Sequence record: ON286974
DNA: 64,000 nt
Origin: Escherichia phage W115
Strand: one strand, 5' to 3'
Shown one piece after another: positions 9,868 through 59,255 of the stretch. The position numbers were made by a program, and so were the translations under genes. The notes below the pieces were generated by a model, which worked only from the letters and a program-made list of their open reading frames with translations, did no database searches and had not been told where the DNA came from. Each line of letters opens with the position of its first letter. Within the stretch, counting starts at the first letter, position 1.

Positions 9868-10925
9868 TGAAAATTAGTGTTATCAATGATGCCGTTGATA
9901 GCTTTAAAGCGGGGGTTAAAACCTCCGCTGGTTTTACCTCAAAAAATAAAGGGAAAACATTAACCGCTCAATTCCCCGCTGAACGTGCTAGCGGTAATGA
10001 TGCTAGCGGTTATTATATCAACGACTTATATAATAATGGTCTGTTATTCACTGCATACGATTATACATCTCGTACTACTGGTTCGTTGCGTGATTTCAGG
10101 AAAAAGAAAAATGTTGCTAGCGGTTTTGGTGGTAGCGTTAATATCGCTGGTTTTGATTTAAATTTGGGTGGGAGAAATGCTGCATTTGACCGAGAGGCAA
10201 TTGCTAATATTCTTCTTCCTCGTAGTCAATCTGACGTTGACGCTGCTAGCCATAAGTTTAATGATGTTGGTGAATCTGTTATTTCTCGCGGTGGTGGTAC
10301 TTTAGGCGGTGCTCTTTCTAATATGGCATCTACTGCCGTTTTTGGTGGTATCGAAAGTATTACTGGTGGATACCTTGCCGATCACGGTGAACAGATTTAT
10401 AATACTGCGCGAAGCATGTATGCTGGTGCTGACGCACGAACTAAAAACTACGTATGGCATCTAACCCCACGTAGTATTGAAGACCTTCGCAATATTCTGA
10501 TCATATACGAAACGTTTTTAGAGTTGTCTTATGGGTCTAGTGGTATTTCCAGCACCGCAAAAGAATTAAAAGCGGAAGTTGATGCGTGGTATAAAAATAC
10601 ACTATTGAGAAAATCCACCCCAGAGGAAGCGAAGAGAAATGATACTCTGTTTGAAGGGATCACCGATTTTCTATCAAACGCAATTACTGTATCTAACCCG
10701 ACAATATGGATGATCTCTAACTTCGGCAAGCGTACATCGTTTGAAGGGCGTAGCGATGCATTTGGTCCCGCTCAGATCTCAAGTGTACGTCTGGACAAGT
10801 CGCCTGATGGTAAGTTTAATGGCCTTGCTATTTCTCCTAACTTGCCTAGTACATTTGTTCTGGAAGTATCATTTAGAGAGATCTTGACACTTTCCCGTGG
10901 TACTATATTTGGGAGTGTGGTATAA
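9867..10925 (+). CDS. 48: baseplate tail-tube junction protein gp48
   Basis: 352 aa; synteny. Confidence 0.7.
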   Translation: MKISVINDAVDSFKAGVKTSAGFTSKNKGKTLTAQFPAERASGNDASGYYINDLYNNGLLFTAYDYTSRTTGSLRDFRKKKNVASGFGGSVNIAGFDLNLGGRNAAFDREAIANILLPRSQSDVDAASHKFNDVGESVISRGGGTLGGALSNMASTAVFGGIESITGGYLADHGEQIYNTARSMYAGADARTKNYVWHLTPRSIEDLRNILIIYETFLELSYGSSGISSTAKELKAEVDAWYKNTLLRKSTPEEAKRNDTLFEGITDFLSNAITVSNPTIWMISNFGKRTSFEGRSDAFGPAQISSVRLDKSPDGKFNGLAISPNLPSTFVLEVSFREILTLSRGTIFGSVV

Positions 10926-11857
10926 TGTTTGATTTAAATGATTTTAACGAACAAGCCGCTAACCTTGACTTTCAGCGATCTAACTTATTCAGCGTGGCAT
11001 TTGCCACCACTCCAAGTAATAAGACACAAGCGATCCTAGAAAGTATGGGCGGTGCGGTATATGATATTATACCAAATGCATTAAATGACTATTTCGGGAT
11101 TACTCGTGGTGATTATACTGACGCATTAACAAATCTTGCTGTACAGGGTGTTAGGCGTGCTGTTGATTCATCCGGTGTCAAAAAGTATCTTTTAGGTGCA
11201 ATGTCATCCCGCGTAGTTCAATCTCTTCTGGGGCAATTTGATGTTGGTACATATGCGCTTGACTGGTTCAATATGGCATATAAGACAAGCGGTCTTCTGG
11301 TGTATGCTGTTAAGGTTCCAGAAAACAGATTGAATTATGAAATGGACCGTAACCACAATGCGCCAAACATTCGAATTACCGGACGTGATTTTGATCCGCT
11401 TGTATTGAGCTTTAGAATGGACTCTAGCGCATCAAACTATAGAGCAATGCAGGATTGGGTTAACTCAGTAGAAGACCCCGTGACAGGGCTTCGTGCGCTT
11501 CCTGTTGACGTTGAAGCAGATATTCAGGTTAACTTACATAACCGAATGGGAGTTCCTCACACAATCATGATGTTTAATGGTTGTGTTCCTGTTGGTGTGA
11601 GTGCACCGGAATTAACCTATGAAAACAACAACGAAATTACAACATTCGATGTTACTTTTGCGTATAGGACTATGCAAACTGGTGCTGTAGGAGAGCAAGC
11701 CGCGCGAGAATGGATTGAGGATAAGGCAATAAACGCAATAACAAACACTTTCGGCAATAATTTACTTGATAGTGGGTTATCTGCTGCTGGTAATGCTTTA
11801 TCGCGTCTAAATGGCGTTGGTGGGCGTGTGGTGAATACTGTCACTAACTGGTTCTGA
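10925..11857 (+). CDS. 54: baseplate tail-tube initiator gp54
   Basis: 310 aa; synteny; followed by terminator. Confidence 0.7.
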   Translation: MFDLNDFNEQAANLDFQRSNLFSVAFATTPSNKTQAILESMGGAVYDIIPNALNDYFGITRGDYTDALTNLAVQGVRRAVDSSGVKKYLLGAMSSRVVQSLLGQFDVGTYALDWFNMAYKTSGLLVYAVKVPENRLNYEMDRNHNAPNIRITGRDFDPLVLSFRMDSSASNYRAMQDWVNSVEDPVTGLRALPVDVEADIQVNLHNRMGVPHTIMMFNGCVPVGVSAPELTYENNNEITTFDVTFAYRTMQTGAVGEQAAREWIEDKAINAITNTFGNNLLDSGLSAAGNALSRLNGVGGRVVNTVTNWF

Positions 11858-11866
11858 TAAGCGAAA

Positions 11867-11893
11867 GGCGGGGATTATCCCCGCCTTTTTATT
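11867..11893. terminator. bidirectional rho-independent terminator after gp54 / after lipoprotein gene
   Basis: Hairpin ggcgggg-attat-ccccgcc followed by T-run; A-run on the other side. Confidence 0.7.
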
Positions 11894-12374
11894 TTGCTAA
11901 ATCATTGCAATATTTTAGTGCCTTAGTTTGAAATTCTGCGCTGTTAAGTTCTTCATAACGGTCATAATCACCGTTTAATGCTGCCTTTCTTGCTTCTTGC
12001 TCTATCTGCATGTCAGACATGATAATACAGCGATCCCGCGCTTTCATCTTCTCAAGTTGTATAGACTCTTCTTTCTGCTTGCGCAATTCTTCTTGACGCT
12101 TCTTTTCTTCTTGTGCTTTCTCTTCCCGCGCTTCTTTGATTGCCTCCTTGAACATCTGCGTTTGTGGTGCTAAACCAACTTTAACTCGATCTACGTCTCG
12201 ACGTTCCATTTTAGAAATAAAGCATGATTCGATCTGATCATCACTTGCATATGCTGCTTTACATTCACGAAGCAAGAAAACCGGATCTGATTTAGCATTC
12301 ATCATAGCTTCCATGTTGGCACAACCAGTAAGCATGAATGCAGCCGCAAGACCAATCAGTTTAATCATTTTCAT
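11889..12374 (-). CDS. predicted lipoprotein with coiled-coil, function unknown
   Basis: 161 aa; N-terminal signal peptide with lipobox LTGC; Lys/Glu-rich helix; start overlaps stop of upstream ART gene (ATGA). Confidence 0.55.
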   Translation of the reverse strand: MKMIKLIGLAAAFMLTGCANMEAMMNAKSDPVFLLRECKAAYASDDQIESCFISKMERRDVDRVKVGLAPQTQMFKEAIKEAREEKAQEEKKRQEELRKQKEESIQLEKMKARDRCIIMSDMQIEQEARKAALNGDYDRYEELNSAEFQTKALKYCNDLAK

Positions 12375-13195
12375 TTAGTCACCTCACCGAAAATTGTAAA
12401 TTGTCTACGATTCTCATCGCCGAAAGATTCTACTACGTCGTTTACCTTGACGCAAGTCCCGCGCGGTAAAATTACTTCACATTCGCAAGGGTTCCATGCA
12501 ATGGACCCAACAACAAAACCTTTATGATCTTTTACATCAATCACCCATGATACATTACAAGAATGTTGCATCTTTCCGGTCACGGATTCATATCGATTCT
12601 CACAATAAAGGCTAGTGCTGTTTGATAGCCAGCCTCCAAAGATGATCGGTGTCATGCTGGTCGATACAAAGTTTTTAAAGGTAAATTCCTTATCTTCAAT
12701 AATACGCTCTATTGTCTGAATGTCAAGATGTTGACCTCGATAAAGAGTACCGTTTAACTTTTCGGTTTTATCCATGACGCAATCCATCAAATCAACAATT
12801 TCTGATATCTCGTCGGTCATGTCCTCTTCCCCTAAGAGAGCACCATTTACCCATTCGTATTGTTCAGACACATAATCACAGATTGCATTATATTCTGCTG
12901 GGGTTATGTTGTTATGTTTGTAATGTTTGAATACATTATCTCCAAAGTCTTCGGAATGTACTTCATACATCACATTAATGATTTTCTTGACAAATCCATA
13001 ATCTTGCGTCTCGCGCTCAAGGAAGCGGATAACCTTCACATAATCATCAAAGTTAATCTGATCGCTGATCATCTCAGTGATCATGTAACCATTAATCCCC
13101 TCAATGTCATATGTTTCGATGTAATTATCCATACGTTCCATCATTGATTCGCGTGATTCTTCTGAAAGACGAAAATCCTGTAATTGTTTGAACAT
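12371..13195 (-). CDS. Alt-family ADP-ribosyltransferase paralog (short form)
   Basis: 274 aa; R-S-E motifs TLYRGQ, FVSTS, ECEVILPRG matching those in the adjacent 683-aa Alt; GGGAGG RBS. Confidence 0.65.
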   Translation of the reverse strand: MFKQLQDFRLSEESRESMMERMDNYIETYDIEGINGYMITEMISDQINFDDYVKVIRFLERETQDYGFVKKIINVMYEVHSEDFGDNVFKHYKHNNITPAEYNAICDYVSEQYEWVNGALLGEEDMTDEISEIVDLMDCVMDKTEKLNGTLYRGQHLDIQTIERIIEDKEFTFKNFVSTSMTPIIFGGWLSNSTSLYCENRYESVTGKMQHSCNVSWVIDVKDHKGFVVGSIAWNPCECEVILPRGTCVKVNDVVESFGDENRRQFTIFGEVTK

Positions 13196-13216
13196 TTTAA
13201 ACCTCCCATATAACAG

Positions 13217-13250
13217 AAAACGGGGCTAGTATAAAACTAGTCCCCGTTTG
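13217..13250 (-). terminator. rho-independent terminator downstream of alt
   Basis: Long hairpin aaacggggctagt-ataaa-actagtccccgttt. Confidence 0.6.
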
Positions 13251-13273
13251 AGTCAACCATTATTTCTTAAAAA

Positions 13274-15325
13274 TTACATTTTAAATTTATCTGGCATTGC
13301 GTCTACAGATACCAGATCAGCGATAAGCTGACGTAGAGTTGCCTTATCTGCTTTCTTACGTTCGGTTTTAGCTTCGCTAATGAAGCTGGAGAAAGACAGG
13401 TCAGAAGCAGGTTTAACAACACCTTCACGGATGAATGCATCACCGTCCGCGATCATCTCGCCAGATTCTTGTAATGCTGCCAGTTCATTTTTGTTCATAA
13501 TATGTGCCTCAATGTAATAAGTTTCTTGTGAATCCGTCGATGCCGTAGCACGAGTTACCGTATCAAAGGATAACACAACACCGCGAGGAAGTAAAATCTC
13601 GCATTCTTTGTAAGCAAATGCTTTGTTACCTACTGGCAACACAGGGATGTTTTCCGCGCCAGCAATGGAGAAAGCAACATTAGCGCCACCTTCACCGCGA
13701 GAGCCAGCCATAGAATCAACACCAGCAACGGCACTAGCCACGTTTGCATTCCAGCCGCCAAAAATGTTAGGTTCAAGGGAAGTGCTCACATAGTTTTTAA
13801 AGTAAAACGCTTTTTGCTTACGTGCAGTTTCCCACATTTGCGACCGGAAGTCCATACCACGATACAGAATAGTACCCGGATCAAGTTTAACGCCATAGTT
13901 GGAGAAGGCATTATCCAGTGCATCGCACATCTTGACCAATTCTTCTGGATCTGCGATGCCTTCAAACTCTTCCAGCTTACGGTCGGTTAGGAAGTTGTTC
14001 ATATTGATGTATGCTGCATCGGCATATTCGCTCAACACAAAACCTTCCGCGCCCGGCAGATCAAGATCAATATCTGCCATCATTTCACCCATGTTGCTAG
14101 CAATTGCTTCAAACATACCGGAAGCAACATTACGTAGGGCATCGGTTTTAATCTGGGTGATATGACTACGCAGCATTTCAGCTTTTACATCTGCTGGCAT
14201 AGACTGGTCTACTCGATCCATTGCCAGGGCGGTGATCTTGTTTTCGAATACTTCCTCGCTCATGATTTCTTTTAAGCGTTTGATTGATGCTGCGATAACT
14301 TCCGCAGACAACGGATCATATTGATCCTGAACTTTTACCAGTTCGCTTACTGCGTATTTTGCATCGGCTTCGCTTTCAAAAATAGTACGCATGAAACCAT
14401 AGCGAGTGATAATATCACTTGTCCAGTCATTCAGAGAACGGGCGGTTGAACGTTCTAAGGCTTGACGGTCAATCAGAGTATTAAACTGTTTCTTAGGTTC
14501 TGCTTCGGTGATATCTTCTTCCGGTTTAAGATTAATTTTTTCTGGATGATTCACATAGTCGCTGTTATAGGTCGCTTGAGTTTTCAGCATTTCTTCTTTA
14601 GTCAAACGAGATTTAGCCGCTACGCGTTGTTCTGCTTCCGAGTTTCGTTCTTCTTCTGACACAAGACTAGCCGCATACGCCTCATCTTTAGTCAGAGATT
14701 CACCAGTAGCCTTAGATACCCAGCGATCACCTAAATCACTTTCTACTTTAGTGAACAAGGATTCATCAAGTTTAATCCCTTTAATCTTATCAATCGCCAT
14801 CCCGCGACGCTTGACAACAACTAAAGCGATCTTTTTGCTGGTCATTACTTCCTGCTGGAATACTTCAAACTTCGGTGTACGACGCACCAAACGCTCTATA
14901 ACGCGCTTAACCAGTTCGGTCTTACCTTTCATGCGGGATACGTTAAAACGGAACATAACAGCGTCTAATTGCGCTTTACGGGCTGTTTCCATAACCACAT
15001 CAAAAGCACTTGCCATAACTGCAATCGGGTTATCTCCTAGACCATTTTTAAGCTGTACAATACGACCGCTTTTGTTCATTTCGCACAGTACAACATGTGC
15101 GGTCTTGTCACCCATACGAATGATTTTAGGTGTTTTGTTGGTGAAGTTACAAAGACGGACAATCACATCTTTATCGCGTGTCTGTACTGCAAAAAGCTGT
15201 TTAGGATTCTGCTTAGGCTTTAAGCACTGTACCGGAGCAATACTACCAAAGTTTTCTTCCTCTTCCGTCAACAGCCATTTCTCGAAAGATTCAATCATTA
15301 GATCGTCGATTTCTAAGTTAAACAT
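13274..15325 (-). CDS. alt: Alt ADP-ribosyltransferase (capsid-packaged)
   Basis: 683 aa, same size as T4 Alt; C-terminal ART motifs LYRG, YVSTS, YKECEILLPRG; location after gene 54. Confidence 0.8.
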   Translation of the reverse strand: MFNLEIDDLMIESFEKWLLTEEEENFGSIAPVQCLKPKQNPKQLFAVQTRDKDVIVRLCNFTNKTPKIIRMGDKTAHVVLCEMNKSGRIVQLKNGLGDNPIAVMASAFDVVMETARKAQLDAVMFRFNVSRMKGKTELVKRVIERLVRRTPKFEVFQQEVMTSKKIALVVVKRRGMAIDKIKGIKLDESLFTKVESDLGDRWVSKATGESLTKDEAYAASLVSEEERNSEAEQRVAAKSRLTKEEMLKTQATYNSDYVNHPEKINLKPEEDITEAEPKKQFNTLIDRQALERSTARSLNDWTSDIITRYGFMRTIFESEADAKYAVSELVKVQDQYDPLSAEVIAASIKRLKEIMSEEVFENKITALAMDRVDQSMPADVKAEMLRSHITQIKTDALRNVASGMFEAIASNMGEMMADIDLDLPGAEGFVLSEYADAAYINMNNFLTDRKLEEFEGIADPEELVKMCDALDNAFSNYGVKLDPGTILYRGMDFRSQMWETARKQKAFYFKNYVSTSLEPNIFGGWNANVASAVAGVDSMAGSRGEGGANVAFSIAGAENIPVLPVGNKAFAYKECEILLPRGVVLSFDTVTRATASTDSQETYYIEAHIMNKNELAALQESGEMIADGDAFIREGVVKPASDLSFSSFISEAKTERKKADKATLRQLIADLVSVDAMPDKFKM

Positions 15326-15365
15326 TTTATATCCTCTAGTTGATAACCTATAAACCTATATTTAT

Positions 15366-15392
15366 GAAAAAGGGGCTTAACGCCCCCATTTA
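15366..15392 (-). terminator. rho-independent terminator
   Basis: Hairpin ggggc-ttaac-gcccc with U-run on the minus-strand transcript. Confidence 0.5.
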
Positions 15393-15605
15393 TTATAATG
15401 CACCATCGAGCAATTGCTCTAAGGTGTATCCTGAATAGTCTTTTTCAATCAGGGTATATTTTCCTACTCGTTTAATACAGCCACGCATTTCAACGTATTC
15501 TGCGTAGTTGATGGTGCGAGTTGTTCCATCTTCCAGTAATGCAGTACCGATTTCGTTAATGCGGTCATAAGTTACGTCGGTAATGATGATTTCGATGTTA
15601 GCCAT
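15393..15605 (-). CDS. hypothetical small protein (70 aa)
   Basis: Track ORF with AGGAG RBS and own early promoter. Confidence 0.5.
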   Translation of the reverse strand: MANIEIIITDVTYDRINEIGTALLEDGTTRTINYAEYVEMRGCIKRVGKYTLIEKDYSGYTLEQLLDGAL

Positions 15606-15641
15606 TTGATACTCCTTAGTAGTTCGTTTCGGTATGGGTGT

Positions 15642-15670
15642 ATTATGATATACACCATCTGTTATGTCAA
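15642..15670 (-). promoter_or_regulatory. sigma70-type early promoter (TTGACA-17-CATAAT)
   Basis: Read on minus strand: GTTGACA, 17-nt spacer, CATAAT, upstream A-rich tract. Confidence 0.55.
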
Positions 15671-15676
15671 CAACTT

Positions 15677-15856
15677 TTAGAACATTTTTGAAATTAATTC
15701 TGCTTTGATTTCGCAGAGAACATCTAAAGATTTCTCGTCACCCGCTTTTGCTGCTTCTGCTTGCATTTTTGAAATGGCTTCAATGTCAGTGCAATTATAA
15801 GCCGCTTGAACTTTAGCGATTGCGATGATTGCCGATTCGATGGTTAAGTTTTTCAT
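15677..15856 (-). CDS. hypothetical small protein (59 aa)
   Basis: Unlisted ORF MKNLTIESAIIAIAKVQAAYNC... with GGAGAA RBS downstream of a PeSL promoter. Confidence 0.45.
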   Translation of the reverse strand: MKNLTIESAIIAIAKVQAAYNCTDIEAISKMQAEAAKAGDEKSLDVLCEIKAELISKMF

Positions 15857-15888
15857 GTTTGATTCTCCTTTCGTTTCGGTATGTGTGC

Positions 15889-15918
15889 ATTATAGGGGAT
15901 CACCGATCCCCCTGTCAA
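15889..15918 (-). promoter_or_regulatory. PeSL-type early promoter (stem-loop between -35 and -10)
   Basis: TTGACA then palindrome GGGGATCGGTGATCCCC then TATAAT on the minus strand. Confidence 0.6.
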
Positions 15919-15925
15919 CAATTTT

Positions 15926-16444
15926 TTAGTTATTTTTTAATTGCTCATCTTGCAATAGGGCAATCACATGCTGGCGATGTTCTTCCGATTGAGGCACACC
16001 GAAAAAGTTTGTTTTGTAGAAATACTCTAATCGGTCTTCTCGTGTGCTCTCTTCCATCATGATCGCGGGTAGTCCGAGATTTCGGAAACGTCGCTTTTCT
16101 GCTGGCGTAAAATCACTGTAATACAACATAGAATCATCATTACCAGCAATGCTAAACTCATCCTTCATAAAGGAGAATATTGCGTTTAAACGCTGTTTAC
16201 CGTCCACGATTTCGATCTCATAGCGAGAGCCATCATCAATCTTAGCCATTGCGATAGCACCAACCGGAAAATCATTAATCAGGTTTTCGATAAACATACG
16301 TTTGTTTTCGGTGTCCCATACCAAAGGACGCTGATAATCTGGGTTCATGTTGATATAGCCATCTTCTAACCATGCATCATAAACAGAGATGACAAAGTTT
16401 TTAGTATTGGTATAGTAACGGCGTTTAGGCGTTAAACGGTTCAT
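15926..16444 (-). CDS. DUF262/ParB-like N-terminal domain protein
   Basis: Motifs NPDYQRPLVWD and IVDGKQRL typical of the DUF262 (GmrSD N-terminal / ParB-like) fold; start re-assigned to ATG 16444 with AGGAGA RBS, 1 nt after upstream stop. Confidence 0.5.
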   Translation of the reverse strand: MNRLTPKRRYYTNTKNFVISVYDAWLEDGYINMNPDYQRPLVWDTENKRMFIENLINDFPVGAIAMAKIDDGSRYEIEIVDGKQRLNAIFSFMKDEFSIAGNDDSMLYYSDFTPAEKRRFRNLGLPAIMMEESTREDRLEYFYKTNFFGVPQSEEHRQHVIALLQDEQLKNN

Positions 16445-16445
16445 G

Positions 16446-16778
16446 TTATAGTCTCCTGAATGGATCATCACGTAAATCAATATCTTTTAAGAACTCATCC
16501 CATGAATGGCGGATATTGTTCTTAATTCTCCAGATAAGAGCAGGGATTGAACGCTCTCCCATCTGGAAGTATGGATCATATGATCCGTATGCCCAATATG
16601 CTACTACAATTCCACAATCAGCGCAATAGTATTCTATTTCACTTGCTGGCGACCAAAGTCCATCAATATGATCGGTGATCTTGCTTTCGATGTTATGGCT
16701 ATGACAATCAGGGCAACGGATGCAATGACCTTGTTTATCGTAATTTGACGTTAGCGAATACTTAAACAATCTCATCAT
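16446..16778 (-). CDS. Cys/His-rich zinc-ribbon protein
   Basis: 110 aa with CIRCPDCHSH ... CADCG; ATGA start/stop overlap with upstream gene. Confidence 0.5.
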   Translation of the reverse strand: MMRLFKYSLTSNYDKQGHCIRCPDCHSHNIESKITDHIDGLWSPASEIEYYCADCGIVVAYWAYGSYDPYFQMGERSIPALIWRIKNNIRHSWDEFLKDIDLRDDPFRRL

Positions 16779-17491
16779 AGATCCTTATTGGCTTCAAATA
16801 CTGCCTTTGCGAATCCTCGCGGGGTAAGTGACCTGATAGTCTTTGTTCTGGTTCCTTTCCCGCCTAGCTTAGAATGCTGTTTACTGTACCCTTTATTAAT
16901 CTGCAACGGTTTCTTTTCTGGCATTATAAAGCCTTGTCCGGTCCATAAGCAAGTCTTTTTTGGGTACATATCACGGGCGGCAATATACTCAGGAAACGTA
17001 GGATGTTTATCATCTTCCGGCAAATAACCGCCATATTCCCACGGATGGAACATGTAATCAGGCTTACGCCACATGCTAGAGATAACGCTTACAGGATTCT
17101 CTATCATGTATGGAACTCCTAGCCATTCACCCAAATAAGCGGTTATTTTAGCTGCCCGTACATCATGAACTTGAATCAATGGTCCTTGTTCTCGTTTCTT
17201 TCGTTCAAAGTGCGCAGCGCCACTAACAGCTAAATTGGTGCACGGTGGGAATGCAAAGATAATATCCGGTTTCCCCCATTCAAGGTCCATTGCTCTTTCC
17301 AGCCAGTTCAAATCAATCCAGGTGTTTACATAGGTAATGTTTTGATGTTCAAATCTGGTATTATATTTTTTGTATGTACCGTGGTCGGCGTCATCCGCAT
17401 TAAAGCAGACTACCTTATGACCTGCTTTAGCCCATTCTAGCCCCATTATCCCCGATCCGTCAAAGTTGCAGAATATTAATTTTTGTTTCAT
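16775..17491 (-). CDS. compact cytosine-C5 methyltransferase-like protein (putative)
   Basis: 238 aa; motif I-like FCNFDGSGIMG, ADDADHGTYKKYN, motif IV-like FAFPPC, ENP (ENV-like), C-terminal RSLTPRGFAKA resembling motif IX; no obvious target-recognition domain. Confidence 0.45.
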   Translation of the reverse strand: MKQKLIFCNFDGSGIMGLEWAKAGHKVVCFNADDADHGTYKKYNTRFEHQNITYVNTWIDLNWLERAMDLEWGKPDIIFAFPPCTNLAVSGAAHFERKKREQGPLIQVHDVRAAKITAYLGEWLGVPYMIENPVSVISSMWRKPDYMFHPWEYGGYLPEDDKHPTFPEYIAARDMYPKKTCLWTGQGFIMPEKKPLQINKGYSKQHSKLGGKGTRTKTIRSLTPRGFAKAVFEANKDL

Positions 17492-27482: not shown

Positions 27483-27686
27483 TTAACCGTATACGCGAAA
27501 GTATTCTACTGATCCGTCGCTATACTGTTTTACATTGAATGTATTCACGCCATGATCATTGCTCATAATGACATACACACTGCGACGCTCATCACTAAAC
27601 GGGTTAACTGGTGCTGGTTCAATTTCAACATTAAAACCACGTTTAGCAAGTGCTTCGCCTAATTGCTTGAGTTTATCGGTAAACAT
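27483..27686 (-). CDS. hypothetical small protein (67 aa)
   Basis: Track ORF downstream of pseT. Confidence 0.4.
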   Translation of the reverse strand: MFTDKLKQLGEALAKRGFNVEIEPAPVNPFSDERRSVYVIMSNDHGVNTFNVKQYSDGSVEYFRVYG

Positions 27687-28585
27687 TAAAAGTCTCCGTA
27701 GTTAACCTGAAAACATTCTACACCAATTGAGCGATACATGTCAACCACTTGATCACGGTCATCTACTGCCAAAACAACATGATATCGCGGTGCAATTTCA
27801 GAGAAGAAAATCTCTTTCTTTACTTCATGATCAGGACGACGATCATTAGTTTCACGTTGAAAGTGATCACTAGGTTCAATACCCTGTTCACGCAACCATT
27901 GCAGAGTATCTTCTTCGCAAACATCCTCACGACCTGAGCATGTAATGATACGATAGCCATTATCACGATACAGTTTAAGCATTTCGATCACTTGCGGACG
28001 TGGTTTATCTTCTTTGACCTTTGTCCAGTCAAACGGATGACGACCGCCCTTATCCGCTAATGTTCCATCAATATCAAAGATCACTGCCTTTGGCAGCATA
28101 GTATTCGGTTTGTATACTTCTTGACCCATATATTCCTGCATCAGATAAAATTGGTTGCGCAAATGAGAAAGTGGAATTGCTTTCTCGCCGCGATAGAAAT
28201 TACGTTTCTTTAGTGTCTCAAATGATTCATTGAACACTTGTTCAGTATACACCGCGTTAAATTCTTTTGCAAGTTCTTTGTAGAATACACGATGTTTTTC
28301 TTTCAGGTTGGTATCGGAGATAATGATACTCAATCCGCGTGATAGAGTCTCACGAGCAATCATTCTCTGAATAGACTCTACCAGCTTTTCTTTTTCCTTA
28401 GTATACTTGTATTTCAAATGTGAGTAAACACCAAACAACATAAGACGAAGATCATCACGATTCACATTACGATAATTACTAAACCGTTTACATGTTTCCA
28501 TCGCCCATGTAGTTTTACCGGACCCAGAACAACCAACGGTTAAAATCACTTCACATTTCGGCATTATTTCTCCTTCGGTTTGCAC
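27686..28585 (-). CDS. pseT: polynucleotide 5'-kinase / 3'-phosphatase
   Basis: 299 aa; Walker A GCSGSGKTT at N-terminus and HAD motif DIDGTLADK, as in T4 Pnk. Confidence 0.85.
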   Translation of the reverse strand: MQTEGEIMPKCEVILTVGCSGSGKTTWAMETCKRFSNYRNVNRDDLRLMLFGVYSHLKYKYTKEKEKLVESIQRMIARETLSRGLSIIISDTNLKEKHRVFYKELAKEFNAVYTEQVFNESFETLKKRNFYRGEKAIPLSHLRNQFYLMQEYMGQEVYKPNTMLPKAVIFDIDGTLADKGGRHPFDWTKVKEDKPRPQVIEMLKLYRDNGYRIITCSGREDVCEEDTLQWLREQGIEPSDHFQRETNDRRPDHEVKKEIFFSEIAPRYHVVLAVDDRDQVVDMYRSIGVECFQVNYGDF

Positions 28586-28896
28586 CGTTCCTCATTAAGT
28601 TCTTTTCGATAATAACACATGATCAACTTACTTTCAAGTGTATATCTCTTAATATCCGCAAGCCAGACTCTGAATTTTTGGGAGTCCTCCCACGACATAG
28701 AAACTCTAGGTTTACCGTCTATTGTATCAACTTTCAGGTCAATGTCAACTTTTTCTATTGGTGCTGGTAGTGGAGGATGTAATTTCGGTTCCTGTGAATA
28801 ATGGTCCATTGTACACGAAGAAAGCGCAAATACAATAGGCACAGCGAAGACATGGATTATGGCGGTCTGAAAATTCTTATGTGCTTTCTTAAACAT
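28564..28896 (-). CDS. o-spanin (outer-membrane lipoprotein, Rz1-like)
   Basis: Signal peptide MFKKAHKNFQTAIIHVFAVPIVFALSSC with lipobox, Pro-rich mature part; track ORF extends to 29016, start ambiguous. Confidence 0.5.
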   Translation of the reverse strand: MFKKAHKNFQTAIIHVFAVPIVFALSSCTMDHYSQEPKLHPPLPAPIEKVDIDLKVDTIDGKPRVSMSWEDSQKFRVWLADIKRYTLESKLIMCYYRKELNEERCKPKEK

Positions 28897-29012: not shown

Positions 29013-29336
29013 TCATTTAGTAGCCTCCCTTAACTCTTCGGTAAACTCCTTAAATGAATCATTAAGCTGTTTCTCTACCAACTTGGGTTTTTGTGCTACT
29101 ACATAGCCTCGTGTAGCGTCTTTCATTGCTTTGTTTTGTTCTTCTGCAAACTTAGTTCTTATTCCGTACATCTCCTTTTGTAGTGAGTCTACGACCTTCA
29201 TCTTTTCATCGGTCTTTTTCTTATACTCTGTAAATTCCCGATTCAGTCGATCTACCTCCTTTTTATTTTCCCACCACATATTGCCACCTACCCCTAGCAA
29301 CACAGAGATGATAACAATGTATATCAGCTTTGACAT
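29013..29336 (-). CDS. i-spanin (inner-membrane, Rz-like)
   Basis: N-terminal TM helix MSKLIYIVIISVLLGV followed by Lys/Glu-rich coiled coil; adjacent to lipoprotein partner, position between rnlA and pseT as for T4 pseT.3/pseT.2. Confidence 0.55.
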   Translation of the reverse strand: MSKLIYIVIISVLLGVGGNMWWENKKEVDRLNREFTEYKKKTDEKMKVVDSLQKEMYGIRTKFAEEQNKAMKDATRGYVVAQKPKLVEKQLNDSFKEFTEELREATK

Positions 29337-51222: not shown

Positions 51223-54138
51223 ATGGCAGATTTAAGCAGAATCCAATTTAAACGCACTAGCACTAAAGGTCGTAAACCGGATGCTAGTACGATGAATCCG
51301 GGGGAATTGGCAATCAACCTTGCGGATCAATATCTTCTTACTAAAAATGATTCCGGTGATATTATCAATTTAAGTTGTCCTCCGGTGTATGACCGCGATG
51401 TTACAATGGCGGGTAAGGTTAAAGGTAATAATTATATCTTAGGTAAAACCGCCAACTATCTGGAAGATCAGACAGCGCGAGATCTTAACTATTTTGGTGC
51501 TTTCCGTACCAATGGTCTTGATGGTTTTCTCGAACTCACGCTAAACGTTCCTCATTCTTCTGGTGTTCAGCATGGTCGAGGATTTACTTTCCAGTATGGA
51601 CACACAGGAAACCGTGTAGAAACTTATGGTTATAATAAAGAAGGACAAAAAGCATTTAGTTATAAAATGTATCACGAAGGTGATAAACCAACTCCAGGAG
51701 AATTGAACGTCTATAGCAAACAAGAAATTGACAGAATGTTTATTAAAAACGTTAAAATGTCTGTTCCTTCCGGTGACGCAACTCGTGGTTACTTTAAGAT
51801 CGCGACCGCAATGATTCCGCAGAATGGTCGAATGGCATTTTTACGGATTTACGGCGGAAACGGATATAATGTTAACTCCTACGATCAGGTGGATTTCCTT
51901 GAAATTGTGATTCGTGGTGGTAATAATAACCCTAAAGGTGTTAGTATTGCTGCATATCGTCGTAATTCTTTGAACGTCCATGAAGTATTTGCAATTAATA
52001 CTTCCGGTGATAACTATGACATTTATGTTAACTATGGTCGTTACACCGATAACGTTATTGTAGAGTTTGGAAAAACTGTTGATGTTGCATTGACTGTTCA
52101 TGATGTTCCTGAATTTTCGGCGACTAAACCAGCAACCGGAACTAAATTTGATGCTCGTGTTATTACAATGTTCAACACCGAAAACAAAGCCGGAACGTTG
52201 ATGTTTGATAATAACGGTCAAGGAACGTATGATATTATCAGCTTGAATAACTCGACTGATAGCAATAAAAAATATCTTCGTAAGTTTCGTAGCAAATCCG
52301 CAGAAACAATATGGCATGAAGTTGTCGAGGGTAGCGTATATCGTTTAGCTACGGGCGTTACTGATCAGTCAGACCAACTAAAAATTGATTTTAATGGGGT
52401 TACTGTAAATCGTCTTTTCGTTAAGGGAAATAATGCTATCAGAATGGAGCGTAGAGACGGACAAAGTAATTACCTAGAATTTTATGATTATCGTTCCGGT
52501 GCTAACCGCCGTCAAGGTTATCTAGGATATGGTGACGGTACTACTAACACCGTACAGTTAGTAAATGAATTAACGGAAGGTACTAACTCATTACGACTGG
52601 ATGATACTGGTCAGGTTACGCTGTCAGTAGGCAAAACAAAAATTGTATATACCAACGGACAATATTATTCCGCTAACTCTGATGCATTCCGTATGATTTA
52701 CGGCAATTATGGCGCATTCTGGCGAAATGATGGTCAAAAAGTATATTTGTTGTCTACTGCCGAAAATGATCGTTTTGGTGGATGGAACGGCAACCGACCA
52801 TTCATTTACGACCTGTCAACTGGTAAAGTTACTTTAGGTGGCGACGGTAACGAAGGCGCATTAGTTCTCGAAAGAGATAGCCGTGCGGCTAGATTTGCAG
52901 GTGACATTTATGTCGGTAACGGGATGTTAACCTTTGATGCTGGGCGATTAAATTCTCGTGATTACTTCCGATTTAATCATTGGGGCGATAGCAATAACGC
53001 TCGTGATAACATCTTACAGCTTGACGATAGCAAGGGTGCTCATTTTACCACTGAACGTACTTTAGCAACTGGTGCAATTAAAACTAAATTCTTCGGTGAT
53101 TTGGAATCTGCTGGTCAAATTAAATGGGGTAAAGGGACCGCCACATCTACGTTTAATATACGTGTGTGGGGTGCTGATGCTCGTAAACAGGTGTTTGAGT
53201 GTGCTGATGAAAGCGGTTGGCATTGGTATACCCAACGTCCGGGCGGTCCAGATACTTCTGCAATTGAGTTTGTCATCAATGGTACTGTTAAACCTCAAGC
53301 AATCCACACTGGCGGTAATATCACGCTTAACGGTGCTGATATTGAATTTAAACGAAGCGGTAACAAGCATTTATGGTTTAGAGATCCGAACGGCTTAGAG
53401 TTGGGTCTGTTGTACTGCGATGATGCTGGTGTTATGCGTATTCGTGGGGAGAAATCGACCGAAGTATGGAAATTCTCAGCAAAACAGATTCATCTGGAAA
53501 CTGGTACTGCCGGAAATGGTGTAGGCTTGCTTCGTGGTGCTGTAGGTGGTGGCGCATGGACTCAATGGCGAGATCGTGGCACTGGCTTGCAGGTTGATTG
53601 TCAGCAATCTGAAAACTCAGCGCATAACGTATGGAGAGCTACGCATCAAGGAAAATACCACATCGCGGCAATGGGTGTACACGTTCCTGGTGGTACTATC
53701 GGAAATGCTATGGTGCGTATTCACGTACACGATGCAACTTTTGACTTTAGCGCAACTGGTGATTTCCAAGCAGGTCGTAACGGTAATTTTAACGATGTGT
53801 ACATTCGTTCTGATGCTCGCCTGAAAATCAATAAGGAAGAGTATAAAGAGAATGCTACCGATAAAGTTAATCGCTTGACGGTATACACCTATGACAAGGT
53901 TAAATCTTTAAGTGACCGTACTGTCATTGCTCATGAAGTTGGTATTATTGCTCAGGATCTTGAGAAAGAATTGCCAGAAGCAGTAAAAACCTCGAAGATC
54001 GGCGACGGTGATACACCAGAAGAGATCTTAACAATTTCTAACTCTGCTGTCAACGCTCTTTTAATTAAGGCGTTTCAGGAAATGAGCGAAGAATTGAAAG
54101 CCGTTAAAGCTGAACTAGCGGAACTTAAAAAGAATTAA
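51223..54138 (+). CDS. 37: long tail fibre distal subunit gp37 with C-terminal intramolecular chaperone domain
   Basis: 971 aa; N-terminus like T4 gp37; C-terminal 107 aa carry SDARLKINKEEY...GIIAQDLEKELPEAV...coiled-coil typical of the self-cleaving chaperone (peptidase S74-type) domain. Confidence 0.8.
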   Translation: MADLSRIQFKRTSTKGRKPDASTMNPGELAINLADQYLLTKNDSGDIINLSCPPVYDRDVTMAGKVKGNNYILGKTANYLEDQTARDLNYFGAFRTNGLDGFLELTLNVPHSSGVQHGRGFTFQYGHTGNRVETYGYNKEGQKAFSYKMYHEGDKPTPGELNVYSKQEIDRMFIKNVKMSVPSGDATRGYFKIATAMIPQNGRMAFLRIYGGNGYNVNSYDQVDFLEIVIRGGNNNPKGVSIAAYRRNSLNVHEVFAINTSGDNYDIYVNYGRYTDNVIVEFGKTVDVALTVHDVPEFSATKPATGTKFDARVITMFNTENKAGTLMFDNNGQGTYDIISLNNSTDSNKKYLRKFRSKSAETIWHEVVEGSVYRLATGVTDQSDQLKIDFNGVTVNRLFVKGNNAIRMERRDGQSNYLEFYDYRSGANRRQGYLGYGDGTTNTVQLVNELTEGTNSLRLDDTGQVTLSVGKTKIVYTNGQYYSANSDAFRMIYGNYGAFWRNDGQKVYLLSTAENDRFGGWNGNRPFIYDLSTGKVTLGGDGNEGALVLERDSRAARFAGDIYVGNGMLTFDAGRLNSRDYFRFNHWGDSNNARDNILQLDDSKGAHFTTERTLATGAIKTKFFGDLESAGQIKWGKGTATSTFNIRVWGADARKQVFECADESGWHWYTQRPGGPDTSAIEFVINGTVKPQAIHTGGNITLNGADIEFKRSGNKHLWFRDPNGLELGLLYCDDAGVMRIRGEKSTEVWKFSAKQIHLETGTAGNGVGLLRGAVGGGAWTQWRDRGTGLQVDCQQSENSAHNVWRATHQGKYHIAAMGVHVPGGTIGNAMVRIHVHDATFDFSATGDFQAGRNGNFNDVYIRSDARLKINKEEYKENATDKVNRLTVYTYDKVKSLSDRTVIAHEVGIIAQDLEKELPEAVKTSKIGDGDTPEEILTISNSAVNALLIKAFQEMSEELKAVKAELAELKKN

Positions 54139-59030: not shown

Positions 59031-59255
59031 CTACCGATGACCTTTGGCGTCAACTGCTTTTTTATTATTTTCGTGAAAATTTTTCGTCGCCTCATGTGCT
59101 TTTCGCTGGGCTTCTTGTTGTGCTTGCTGGCGTGCTGCCTCTTGTGAAGCCATAACGGAAGCATTTGCAGCAGTTACAGCCGCTACCATCGCTGCGGTAT
59201 TAGCATTTACAGTACATGCACTAGCCAGCAAAGCAATTGCAATCATTTTCTTCAT
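59031..59255 (-). CDS. small secreted/lipoprotein-like protein (74 aa)
   Basis: Signal peptide MKKMIAIALLASAC with possible lipobox; Ala/Gln-rich helix. Confidence 0.4.
   Translation of the reverse strand: MKKMIAIALLASACTVNANTAAMVAAVTAANASVMASQEAARQQAQQEAQRKAHEATKNFHENNKKAVDAKGHR

Follow-up and report, generated by a model that had tools for sequence, protein, structure and literature searches.

The described systems closest to the gene pair considered here include ADP-ribosyltransferases (ARTs) of T4-like phages. T4 Alt is a packaged NAD+:arginine ADP-ribosyltransferase, whereas T4 ModA and ModB are early, non-packaged ARTs. The phage group in which the Alt paralogue of this study occurs has been sequenced since 2003. 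Early, phage-encoded lipoproteins are also described, namely the superinfection-exclusion lipoproteins Llp of T5 and Cor of T1, phi80 and N15. In RB49, the gene RB49ORF183c was recognized as a paralogous duplication of alt (Nolan et al. 2006, PMC1524935). RB49 and phi1 also carry promoter-early stem-loop (PeSL) cassettes, 51 of them in RB49, in which a sigma70-like promoter and a G-run/C-run stem-loop are combined with an AT-rich tract in the intergenic spacer ahead of accessory genes, and which are tied to locally plastic segments (Arbiol et al. 2010, PMC2839356).

We analysed a stretch of 64,000 nucleotides of Escherichia phage W115 (ON286974), hereafter the window, which is 98-99% identical to RB49, Phi1 and GEC-3S (RB49-like Krischvirus, T4-type). 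The gene order is the one claimed in the original prediction. Gene 54 (10925..11857, plus strand) is followed on the minus strand by the gene of a predicted lipoprotein of 161 aa (11889..12374; PHROG 16112), a 274-aa ORF equivalent to RB49ORF183c (12371..13195), below called the short ART, and full-length alt (13274..15325; 683 aa, Pfam PF03496), its parent paralogue. The short ART is already known: it was described in 2006 and its ORF is named "ADP-ribosyltransferase" in RefSeq. We suggest that the slot between alt and gene 54 probably holds an early bicistronic unit, composed of a truncated alt paralogue and an unpartnered, exchangeable lipoprotein.

The short ART has the R-S-E signature and the predicted fold of Alt/Vip2-type transferases

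A full R-S-E signature had been claimed for the 274-aa protein, and all three motifs are found. The catalytic R153 lies in TLYRGQ (codon 12739..12737), S178-T179-S180 in FVSTS (12664..12656) and E238-C-E240 in ECEVILPRG (12484..12476). The Pfam domain PF03496 (ADPrib_exo_Tox) agrees, with E=5.9e-16 and 58.8 bits at a cut-off of 23.4, and the PHROG profile search places the protein in PHROG 15144. R153, S178-T179-S180, E238 and E240 are unchanged across 10 aligned sequences with identity as low as 22%.

The protein consists of a helical N-terminal lead (~aa 1-145) and a C3/Vip2-like catalytic core. Its AF2 model (pLDDT 82.6) resembles C3bot2, Certhrax, Vis, iota Ia and CDTa (Foldseek, E~1e-10, probability 1.00). 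Solved R-S-E ARTs are matched in the profile-level sequence search as well, and the direct sequence search against PDB chains gave no match. Although the predicted fold is shared with the clostridial C3 exoenzymes, Vis, Certhrax, iota Ia and CDTa, the identity to them is only 13-20%. Unlike these secreted toxins, the short ART would act as an intracellular enzyme of the phage, and it has an additional N-terminal helical extension. Hence, profile, motifs and predicted fold all place it among the Alt/Vip2-type R-S-E ADP-ribosyltransferases. Like iota, Vis and Alt, it is expected to be specific for arginine, given the ExE form of its last motif.

The short ART is a truncated paralogue of Alt

The Alt profile phrog_802 matches the short ART with E=3.7e-45 over positions 330-602 of 674. 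About 330 aa are thus gone at the N-terminus, which bears out the claim that most of the Alt N-terminal region is missing. The C-terminal ~75 aa of Alt, including the conserved ...KFKM tail, are missing too. The PF26846 domain (Tevenvirinae_ADPRT) is recorded on 99%-identical Alt homologues and is absent from the record of the 274-275-aa proteins. The first residues of the short ARTs, on the other hand, are like the Alt N-terminus (MF.N..I). The genomic neighbourhood and the catalytic domain with its motifs (Y-R-G, S-T-S, E-x-E-V-I-L-P-R-G) are common to T4 Alt and the short ART. The description of the protein as closely matching the Alt catalytic region was therefore right about the domain but overstated the closeness: the identity to Alt of the same phage is only 36% over 109 aa (E=9e-16), and to T4 Alt 31% over 181 aa. 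The loop GGWLSNSTSLYCENRY between the STS and ExE motifs differs from that of T4 Alt and is conserved and specific within the short-ART subfamily, which suggests that the short ART may have its own substrate preference. Judged by its sequence, the protein is a truncated yet intact paralogue of Alt, not a full-length Alt orthologue.

Tandem alt paralogues or their remnants are found in the same slot in T4, T6, Ec_MI-02, CF1 and Riv-10, so that the region between alt and gene 54 is a hot spot of tandem alt duplication across T4-like phages. In T4 the slot holds the remnants alt.-1 and alt.-2, and in Moonvirus CF1 shorter, split alt copies. By analogy with these, the short ART could be a functionless, decaying product of an alt duplication. 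However, its reading frame is uninterrupted in 58/58 Krischvirus records, the catalytic residues are kept even in the most distant of the aligned sequences, and homologues of 272-288 aa are maintained at 41-63% identity. With dN/dS of 0.01-0.05 the short ART is under strong purifying selection. The selection analysis effectively refutes decay, which we regard as very improbable.

In its small size, its R-S-E type catalytic residues, its apparent early expression and its first place in a small overlapping operon, the short ART is similar to T4 ModA and ModB. Nevertheless, its branch is Alt/Vip2 and not Mod, and BLASTP detects no similarity to ModA or ModB (best E values 0.42 and 1.5). The ModB-like gene of RB49, RB49p014, is at a different locus, and no ModA-like gene was detected in RB49. 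Since only a ModB-like gene is present there, the short ART may possibly stand in functionally for the missing ModA.

The putative promoter of the short ART is of the early type

The 78-nt spacer between alt and the short ART contains a composite element at 13219..13256 (minus strand), recognized from sequence, promoter scan and fold. It has a -35 box TTGACT (13256..13251), a 17-nt gap and a -10 box TATACT (13233..13228), as well as a hairpin AACGGGGACTAGT/ACTAGCCCCGTT (13248..13219) with a T run after it. The promoter reaches 10/12 matches in a scan in which promoter-like matches over the region are not above chance (12 vs 10.5). The fold z-score of the hairpin is -3.0, and the element carries a promoter annotation in GEC-3S. 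With its AT-rich upstream tract, it has the architecture described in PMC2839356, and by this and its place ahead of accessory genes and a locally plastic segment, the element can be classed as PeSL-like. No second copy of its exact sequence was found elsewhere in the window.

Upstream of alt, a terminator hairpin (15387..15371) is followed by CATAAATA (15366..15359), which matches the T4 late-promoter motif at 7/8. In contrast, the putative promoter of the short ART is, by consensus match, a sigma70 early-type one and not TATAAATA-like. The suggestion that the short ART differs from Alt in timing is thus plausible at the level of consensus motifs, with an early-type promoter and stem-loop on one side and the late-type CATAAATA of alt on the other.

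The promoter type also bears on whether the short ART is packaged in the capsid and injected like Alt, which would give the phage two injected ARTs with different targets. The Alt-like N-terminal residues may retain a packaging signal, and the gene is near alt and adjoins virion genes. However, an early-type promoter in place of a late-type one fits poorly with packaging, as does the loss of the Alt N-terminal domain (PF26846) and of the conserved C-terminal tail, and we consider packaging unlikely. A literature search turned up no relevant virion proteome of an RB49-type phage.

The overlap with the lipoprotein gene is ordinary

As had been predicted, the stop of the 274-aa ORF overlaps the start of the 161-aa ORF. 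The junction reads ...ACT AAA TGA, with the overlapping ATG as ATGA at 12374..12371 on the minus strand, and a Shine-Dalgarno-like GAGGTGA lies immediately upstream of the lipoprotein start. The overlap is 4 nt in JK32, 011D4, Whisky and L023-L025, and 1 nt or 8 nt in the distant relatives L014 and L017. The coupling of the two genes had been called unexpected, but of the 87 pairs of adjacent same-strand genes in the window, 24 (28%) share such a start/stop overlap. We therefore read the 4-nt overlap as the usual operon compaction of T4-like phages with probable translational coupling, rather than as a partnership of the proteins. The order alt - short ART - lipoprotein, with genes overlapping or abutting, is kept where the ARTs are only 42-45% identical. 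Either a functional link or plain vertical inheritance would fit this conservation.

The lipoprotein represents an orphan family

For the assignment of a lipoprotein we used the presence of a positive n-region, a hydrophobic h-region and the pattern [LVI][ASTVI][GAS]C with the Cys within the first ~15-35 residues. The N-terminus MKMIKLIGLAAAFMLTGC, read as MKMIKLIGLAAAFML-T-G-C18, combines two Lys with a hydrophobic core and an L-T-G-C lipobox. The signal peptide and lipobox occupy 12374..12324, the putative lipidated Cys18 12323..12321, and the residue at +2 is Ala. G17 and C18 are unchanged in 26-28 family members, among which the lipobox varies between LTGC, LNGC, LVGC, LFGC and MTGC. The predicted LTGC lipobox is hence present and conserved in the family, as expected of a bacterial-type lipoprotein, and UniProt calls the KFS-EC homologue "Lipoprotein". 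The +2 residue is Ala or Ser, and not Asp, in all family members, which suggests sorting to the outer membrane.

C38, C51, C116 and C156 are invariant family-wide, including members at 25-40% identity. In the AF2 model (pLDDT 88.6) the mature part is all-helical and carries a 62-residue helix rich in Glu, Lys and Arg. When the model was searched by fold in PDB and BFVD, nothing outside the family itself matched significantly; QseG appears there at E=7, which is not evidence of kinship. The only match of the family profile to PDB sequences (E=0.64) is due to chance, and the PADLOC match to PDC-M38A (E=0.0046, 14.5 bits) falls on the charged helix and is judged compositional. The NCBIfam search yielded no match. 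T4 Alt.-3, considered as a counterpart, is unrelated and lacks a signal peptide, and the literature searched for the lipoprotein yielded nothing relevant. At 50% identity, the family forms only about 10 clusters in a set of 1.84 billion proteins, and it is confined to Krischvirus-like contigs. By these searches, it is a genus-restricted orphan family of predicted outer-membrane-type lipoproteins.

The mature lipoprotein behaves as an exchangeable cassette

In a sliding profile, the nucleotide identity to sister phages drops from at least 95% to ~40% across 11892..12320 (minus strand), which is the coding part of the mature lipoprotein, and after it is back to 100% in gene 54 (phage 011D4). Between phages, protein identity is 99.6-99.7% for Alt and 97.8-99.6% for the short ART, but 26-31% for the mature lipoprotein. 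In the lipoprotein dS reaches 1.06, compared with 0.2-0.3 on either side of it. The mature lipoprotein is thus a sharply bounded cassette that is exchanged on its own and occurs in several old allele types, and this is the point that is new here. Unlike in the PeSL cassettes of RB49 and phi1, the recombination boundary falls within the coding sequence, where the signal peptide ends, rather than at the PeSL-like element. A conserved scaffold for export and disulfides is in this way combined with deeply diverged alleles, swapped among therapeutic-type coliphages that are otherwise ~99% identical. Loci of conflict or specificity typically show such a pattern.

These data also bear on the possibility that the ART works with the lipoprotein as a functional two-component module: the two could be co-regulated effectors that target one host pathway, each from its own side of the inner membrane, or one could be an effector and the other its protective or immunity partner. 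The two genes strictly co-occur in 58/58 Krischvirus records, and their adjacency with overlapping or abutting codons is kept in distant metagenomic relatives. Nevertheless, the two do not co-vary: the mature lipoprotein is swapped while the ART stays about 98-100% identical, which is hard to reconcile with a partnership. Overlaps as common as they are among neighbouring genes add little to it. The two proteins would also reside in different compartments, the ART having no signal peptide and the lipoprotein being predicted to be exported. We therefore find a module rather improbable; swapped independently, the ART and the lipoprotein are operon neighbours and not a demonstrable functional pair.

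Possible functions of the lipoprotein

The original prediction proposed a superinfection-exclusion or receptor-masking factor. A mask of the Llp/Cor type would cover the phage's own receptor, block superinfection and keep progeny off debris. The early-type operon, the predicted sorting to the outer membrane and the polymorphic alleles are consistent with it, and there is a weak match to PHROG 1119 (Cor; E=0.006). This match is limited to the signal peptide, residues 1-45, and has no scoring stretch, and past the signal peptide we see no homology to Llp or Cor. With 143 mature residues in a helical rod (model), the protein is far larger than Llp or Cor, twice as big, and its gene does not lie beside the one for a receptor-binding protein. 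Moreover, allele A is present in the Tsx users FL04 and FL15 and in the OmpA user FL20, whereas AV108, likewise an OmpA user, has allele C. The allele does not track the receptor, which argues against masking and against partnership with the ART alike, and long-tail-fibre tip mosaics are independent of the allele. Receptor masking is thus disfavoured, and we give it a slim chance. A search for co-variation of the allele with the gp37 tip showed general mosaicism only.

The periplasmic Cys residues and coiled-coil-like helices could also suit an outer-membrane spanin subunit or another lysis component. However, the canonical spanin pair is elsewhere in the window (phrog_812, 28564..28896, and phrog_739, 29013..29336), the lipoprotein gene has an early-type promoter and no adjoining i-spanin partner, and the protein has no C-terminal transmembrane segment. 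The PHROG profile search found no spanin match in the lipoprotein. A role in lysis is extremely unlikely.

As a guess of low confidence, we favour an early envelope-protective or superinfection-exclusion factor that acts otherwise than by masking the long-tail-fibre receptor. Homologues of Imm and Sp were not detected in RB49. It is conceivable, though it would be a bold guess, that the lipoprotein belongs to a new class of early phage envelope factors, anchored in the outer membrane and replacing Imm/Sp, whose several ancient, recombining allele types set an exclusion specificity between competing sibling phages, with the early, co-transcribed ART as the cytoplasmic arm of a common takeover programme. 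If the lipoprotein does mediate exclusion between related phages, this could matter in the design of phage cocktails.

Proposed sequence of events

With the sigma70-type early promoter, the short ART would be made right after infection. It would remain in the cytoplasm as an arginine-specific mono-ADP-ribosyltransferase, functionally akin to the early Mod enzymes of T4 rather than to packaged Alt. The lipoprotein would be exported, lipidated at Cys18 and, with Ala at +2, sorted to the outer membrane, where it is predicted to form an elongated helical rod held by two disulfides. The targets of the short ART, once known, would tell how T4-like phages divide the ADP-ribosylation of host takeover between injected and newly made enzymes.

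The Rfam scan of 10500..16500 returned no RNA family. The terminator scan places a bidirectional intrinsic-terminator hairpin at 11863..11889, where the lipoprotein gene and gene 54 converge, with a 12-bp stem including 7 GC pairs, which is annotated on both strands in GEC-3S.

The replacement cassette at the lipoprotein locus

The sequence features of the original prediction all hold, save for an overstated match to Alt, and its interpretation holds in part. Both predicted ORFs are present on the minus strand: the short ART, a 274-aa ADP-ribosyltransferase (ART) ORF, at 12371..13195, and a 161-aa lipoprotein ORF at 11889..12374. With alt (683 aa) and the small ORFs that follow it, they are convergent to gp29, gp48 and gp54, ordered thus on the plus strand. 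Over the region 11700..13400, nucleotide identity is 98–99% to 58 sequenced Krischvirus coliphages, among them RB49, Phi1, JSE, GEC-3S, kaaroe and G5211.

Eight isolates, including JK32, Whisky, 011D4, E26, PHB13, G37-3, AV108 and PTE-Eco09, have lipoproteins only ~30% identical to that of the window. For three of them (JK32, 011D4 and Whisky) the loci were fetched and aligned; Alt is 99.6–99.7% and the short ART 97.8–99.6% identical to the window, the mature lipoprotein only 26–31%. In the sliding profile, nucleotide identity is at least 95% along alt and the ART, drops to ~40% exactly past the signal-peptide codons (~12320) and, in 011D4, regains 100% where the terminator and gene 54 are reached. 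The mature-lipoprotein coding part (11892..12320, minus strand) is a sharply bounded cassette, limited by the signal-peptide end and the bidirectional terminator. Of the features described here, this bounded allelic cassette is the only one without a match in the literature searched.

At least three to four deeply diverged allele types, 25–50% identical to each other, occur among phages otherwise ~99% identical. The window lipoprotein (allele A) is 41% identical to that of a phage with a 47%-identical Alt, which exceeds the values for near-identical sisters. Synonymous divergence is 1.06 in the lipoprotein, where the same comparison gives 0.2–0.3 for alt and the ART. Together with a dN/dS of 0.10–0.23 inside the allele A lineage, this indicates old alleles shuffled by recombination rather than runaway positive selection. 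In the allele B phages JK32 and Whisky, divergence also affects the 3′ part of gene 54 (87% amino-acid identity versus 99% in 011D4), and the allele B recombination tract runs past the lipoprotein into this baseplate gene.

Coupling of the short ART and the lipoprotein

As predicted, the short ART stop and the lipoprotein start share ATGA, with the ribosome-binding sequence GAGGTGA just upstream. The original prediction regarded this coupling as unexpected; however, overlaps are routine in the window, joining 24 of 87 same-strand neighbour pairs on a crude gene call, six of them by 4 nt. The ATGA overlap amounts to operon compaction of the usual kind. Metagenomic relatives with ARTs only 42–45% identical keep the order alt, short ART, lipoprotein, gene 54, with junctions that overlap or abut (1 or 8 nt), hence the pair is old. 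Inside the genus the two genes have different histories: a specific partner of the ART would be expected to co-vary with it, and the lipoprotein does not.

Structure and possible role of the lipoprotein

The N-terminus MKMIKLIGLAAAFMLTGC bears out the predicted lipoprotein signal, with a charged n-region, a hydrophobic core and a lipobox. The family (PHROG 16112, unknown function) is found in Krischvirus-like genomes only and comprises 58 phage records and 46 clusters at 90% identity; at 50% identity, a set of 1.84 billion proteins contains just 10 representatives of it. Throughout it the lipobox Cys lies at position 16–24 (LTGC, LNGC, LVGC, LFGC or MTGC), the +2 residue is not Asp, and four more Cys are invariant (C38, C51, C116 and C156 in window numbering). 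The AlphaFold model is all-helical (pLDDT 88.6) with a 62-residue Glu/Lys/Arg-rich helix (residues 72–133), and a fold search of PDB and BFVD gave no resemblance outside the family. The lipoprotein is predicted to be a rod, expressed early and anchored in the outer membrane, whose ectodomain is polymorphic and recombines.

The lipoprotein is very unlikely to be a spanin; the canonical pair lies elsewhere, beside pseT, on the minus strand: the o-spanin (phrog_812, lipobox LSSC, Pro-rich) at 28564..28896 and the i-spanin (phrog_739) at 29013..29336. At its 3′ end the o-spanin gene runs into the start of the pseT-like polynucleotide kinase ORF (27686..28585). Another orphan ORF with a lipobox, 74 aa long (MKKMIAIALLASAC followed by TVNANTAAMV...) and without a PHROG match, lies at 59031..59255 (minus strand).

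The proposed receptor masking disagrees with receptor usage. Tsx is used by the Krischvirus phages FL04 and FL15 and OmpA by FL20 (PMC12032242), and all three carry the window's allele with 98–99% identity. OmpA is also the receptor of AV108 (PMC10844046), whose allele is 30% identical to the window's. Thus, one allele occurs with either receptor, and OmpA with different alleles. Long-tail-fibre tips are mosaic irrespective of the lipoprotein allele, and the sole link to Cor, a match at E=0.006, does not reach beyond the signal peptide. These observations make an Llp/Cor-like mechanism unlikely. No homologue of T4 Imm or Sp (Spackle) was detectable in RB49 (NC_005066) by tblastn; given this and the anchored rod with its polymorphic ectodomain, we suggest, with low confidence, a candidate factor for exclusion or envelope protection that would act at some stage apart from receptor binding.

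The C-terminal ~320 residues of gp37 (53137..54138, plus strand) are highly mosaic across Krischvirus (48–97% identity) and close with a conserved segment (...DARLKINKEEYKENATDKVNRL...GIIAQDLEKELPEAV...), which may be an intramolecular-chaperone-type domain. In RB49 the gp38-type adhesin gene RB49p079 is far away from gene 37.

The short ART as a truncated Alt paralogue

The predicted R-S-E signature is in place, with R153 in TLYRGQ, S178-T179-S180 in FVSTS and E238-C-E240 in ECEVILPRG, and PF03496 is matched far over threshold (E=5.9e-16). Among ten sequences, down to 22% identity, no variation is seen in the catalytic Arg, STS and ExE. The relationship to the Alt family holds, but the close match claimed was overstated: the resident Alt shares 36% identity with it across 109 residues, and T4 Alt 31% across 181. 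The short ART has its own PHROG (15144), and its entire length aligns with positions 330–602 of 674 in the Alt profile phrog_802. In the multiple alignment it lacks ~330 N-terminal residues, as claimed, and also the C-terminal tail of ~75 residues, which in full-length Alts ends with conserved ...KFKM. PF26846 (Tevenvirinae_ADPRT) is recorded for the 668–683-aa Alts and not for the 274–275-aa proteins.

The AlphaFold model (pLDDT 82.6) matches C3 exoenzymes, Vis, Certhrax, iota Ia and CDTa at E~1e-10, and a sequence-profile search also finds chains of Vip2, C3, iota and SpvB. In the C3/iota family the ExE form is borne by arginine-specific enzymes. STS and ExE are joined by a loop (residues 188–210, GGWLSNSTSLYCENRY...) of low confidence in the model; it is strongly conserved inside the short-ART subfamily, differs from that of Alt, and may be a subfamily-specific substrate-recognition element. 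Similarity to T4 ModA/ModB was not detectable. RB49 has a ModB-like gene beside srd (RB49p014; tblastn E=1e-7, NC_005066); tblastn with T4 ModA detected no homologue in that record.

The short ART is a truncated Alt paralogue described before. Nolan et al. 2006 (PMC1524935) listed its equivalent RB49ORF183c, along with 44RRORF188c and T4 alt.-1/alt.-2, as paralogous duplicates of the neighbouring alt, and RefSeq already names the gene "ADP-ribosyltransferase" in RB49, Phi1, JSE, GEC-3S and ECD7. The slot between alt and gene 54 is a general hot spot of alt copies: it contains alt.-3 beside the remnants alt.-1 and alt.-2 in T4, two full-length alts in T6 and likewise Ec_MI-02, two copies in Aeromonas phage Riv-10, and one full-length and two shorter copies in Moonvirus CF1. 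With a dN/dS of 0.01–0.05 (Nei-Gojobori, versus four relatives), the short ART is maintained and not decaying like T4 alt.-1/alt.-2.

Expression signals of the two ARTs

A spacer of 78 nt separates alt from the short ART. It contains an AT-rich tract, then TTGACT and TATACT set 17 nt apart (13256..13228); a G-run/C-run hairpin (13248..13219; fold z-score −3.0) is interleaved with these and followed by a T run. This composite (13219..13256, minus strand) of a sigma70-type early promoter and a post-alt terminator has the architecture of the promoter-early stem-loop (PeSL) elements of RB49/phi1; promoter-like matches around the locus are no more frequent than by chance. For another PeSL copy, promoter and terminator activity were demonstrated experimentally (PMC2839356), and the GEC-3S annotation marks the spacer element as a promoter.

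Upstream of alt (15359..15387, minus strand), a terminator hairpin is followed by CATAAATA, which ends 33 nt ahead of the alt ATG and matches the T4 late promoter TATAAATA at 7 of 8 positions; across the window, exact TATAAATA matches do not exceed chance frequency. The near-consensus motif suggests late expression of alt, unlike the short ART. The different timing suspected for the two ARTs is consistent with these consensus-level signals, early-type at one gene and late-type at the other, so they probably differ in timing. Most likely, the short ART acts early and in the cytoplasm.

The 184-aa ORF 15926..16480 (minus strand) has a homologue with a PF03235 (GmrSD_N/DUF262) match in two relatives; its product would be a DUF262-only protein borne by a phage, and a DNA methyltransferase gene (16775..17491) has it on its upstream side.
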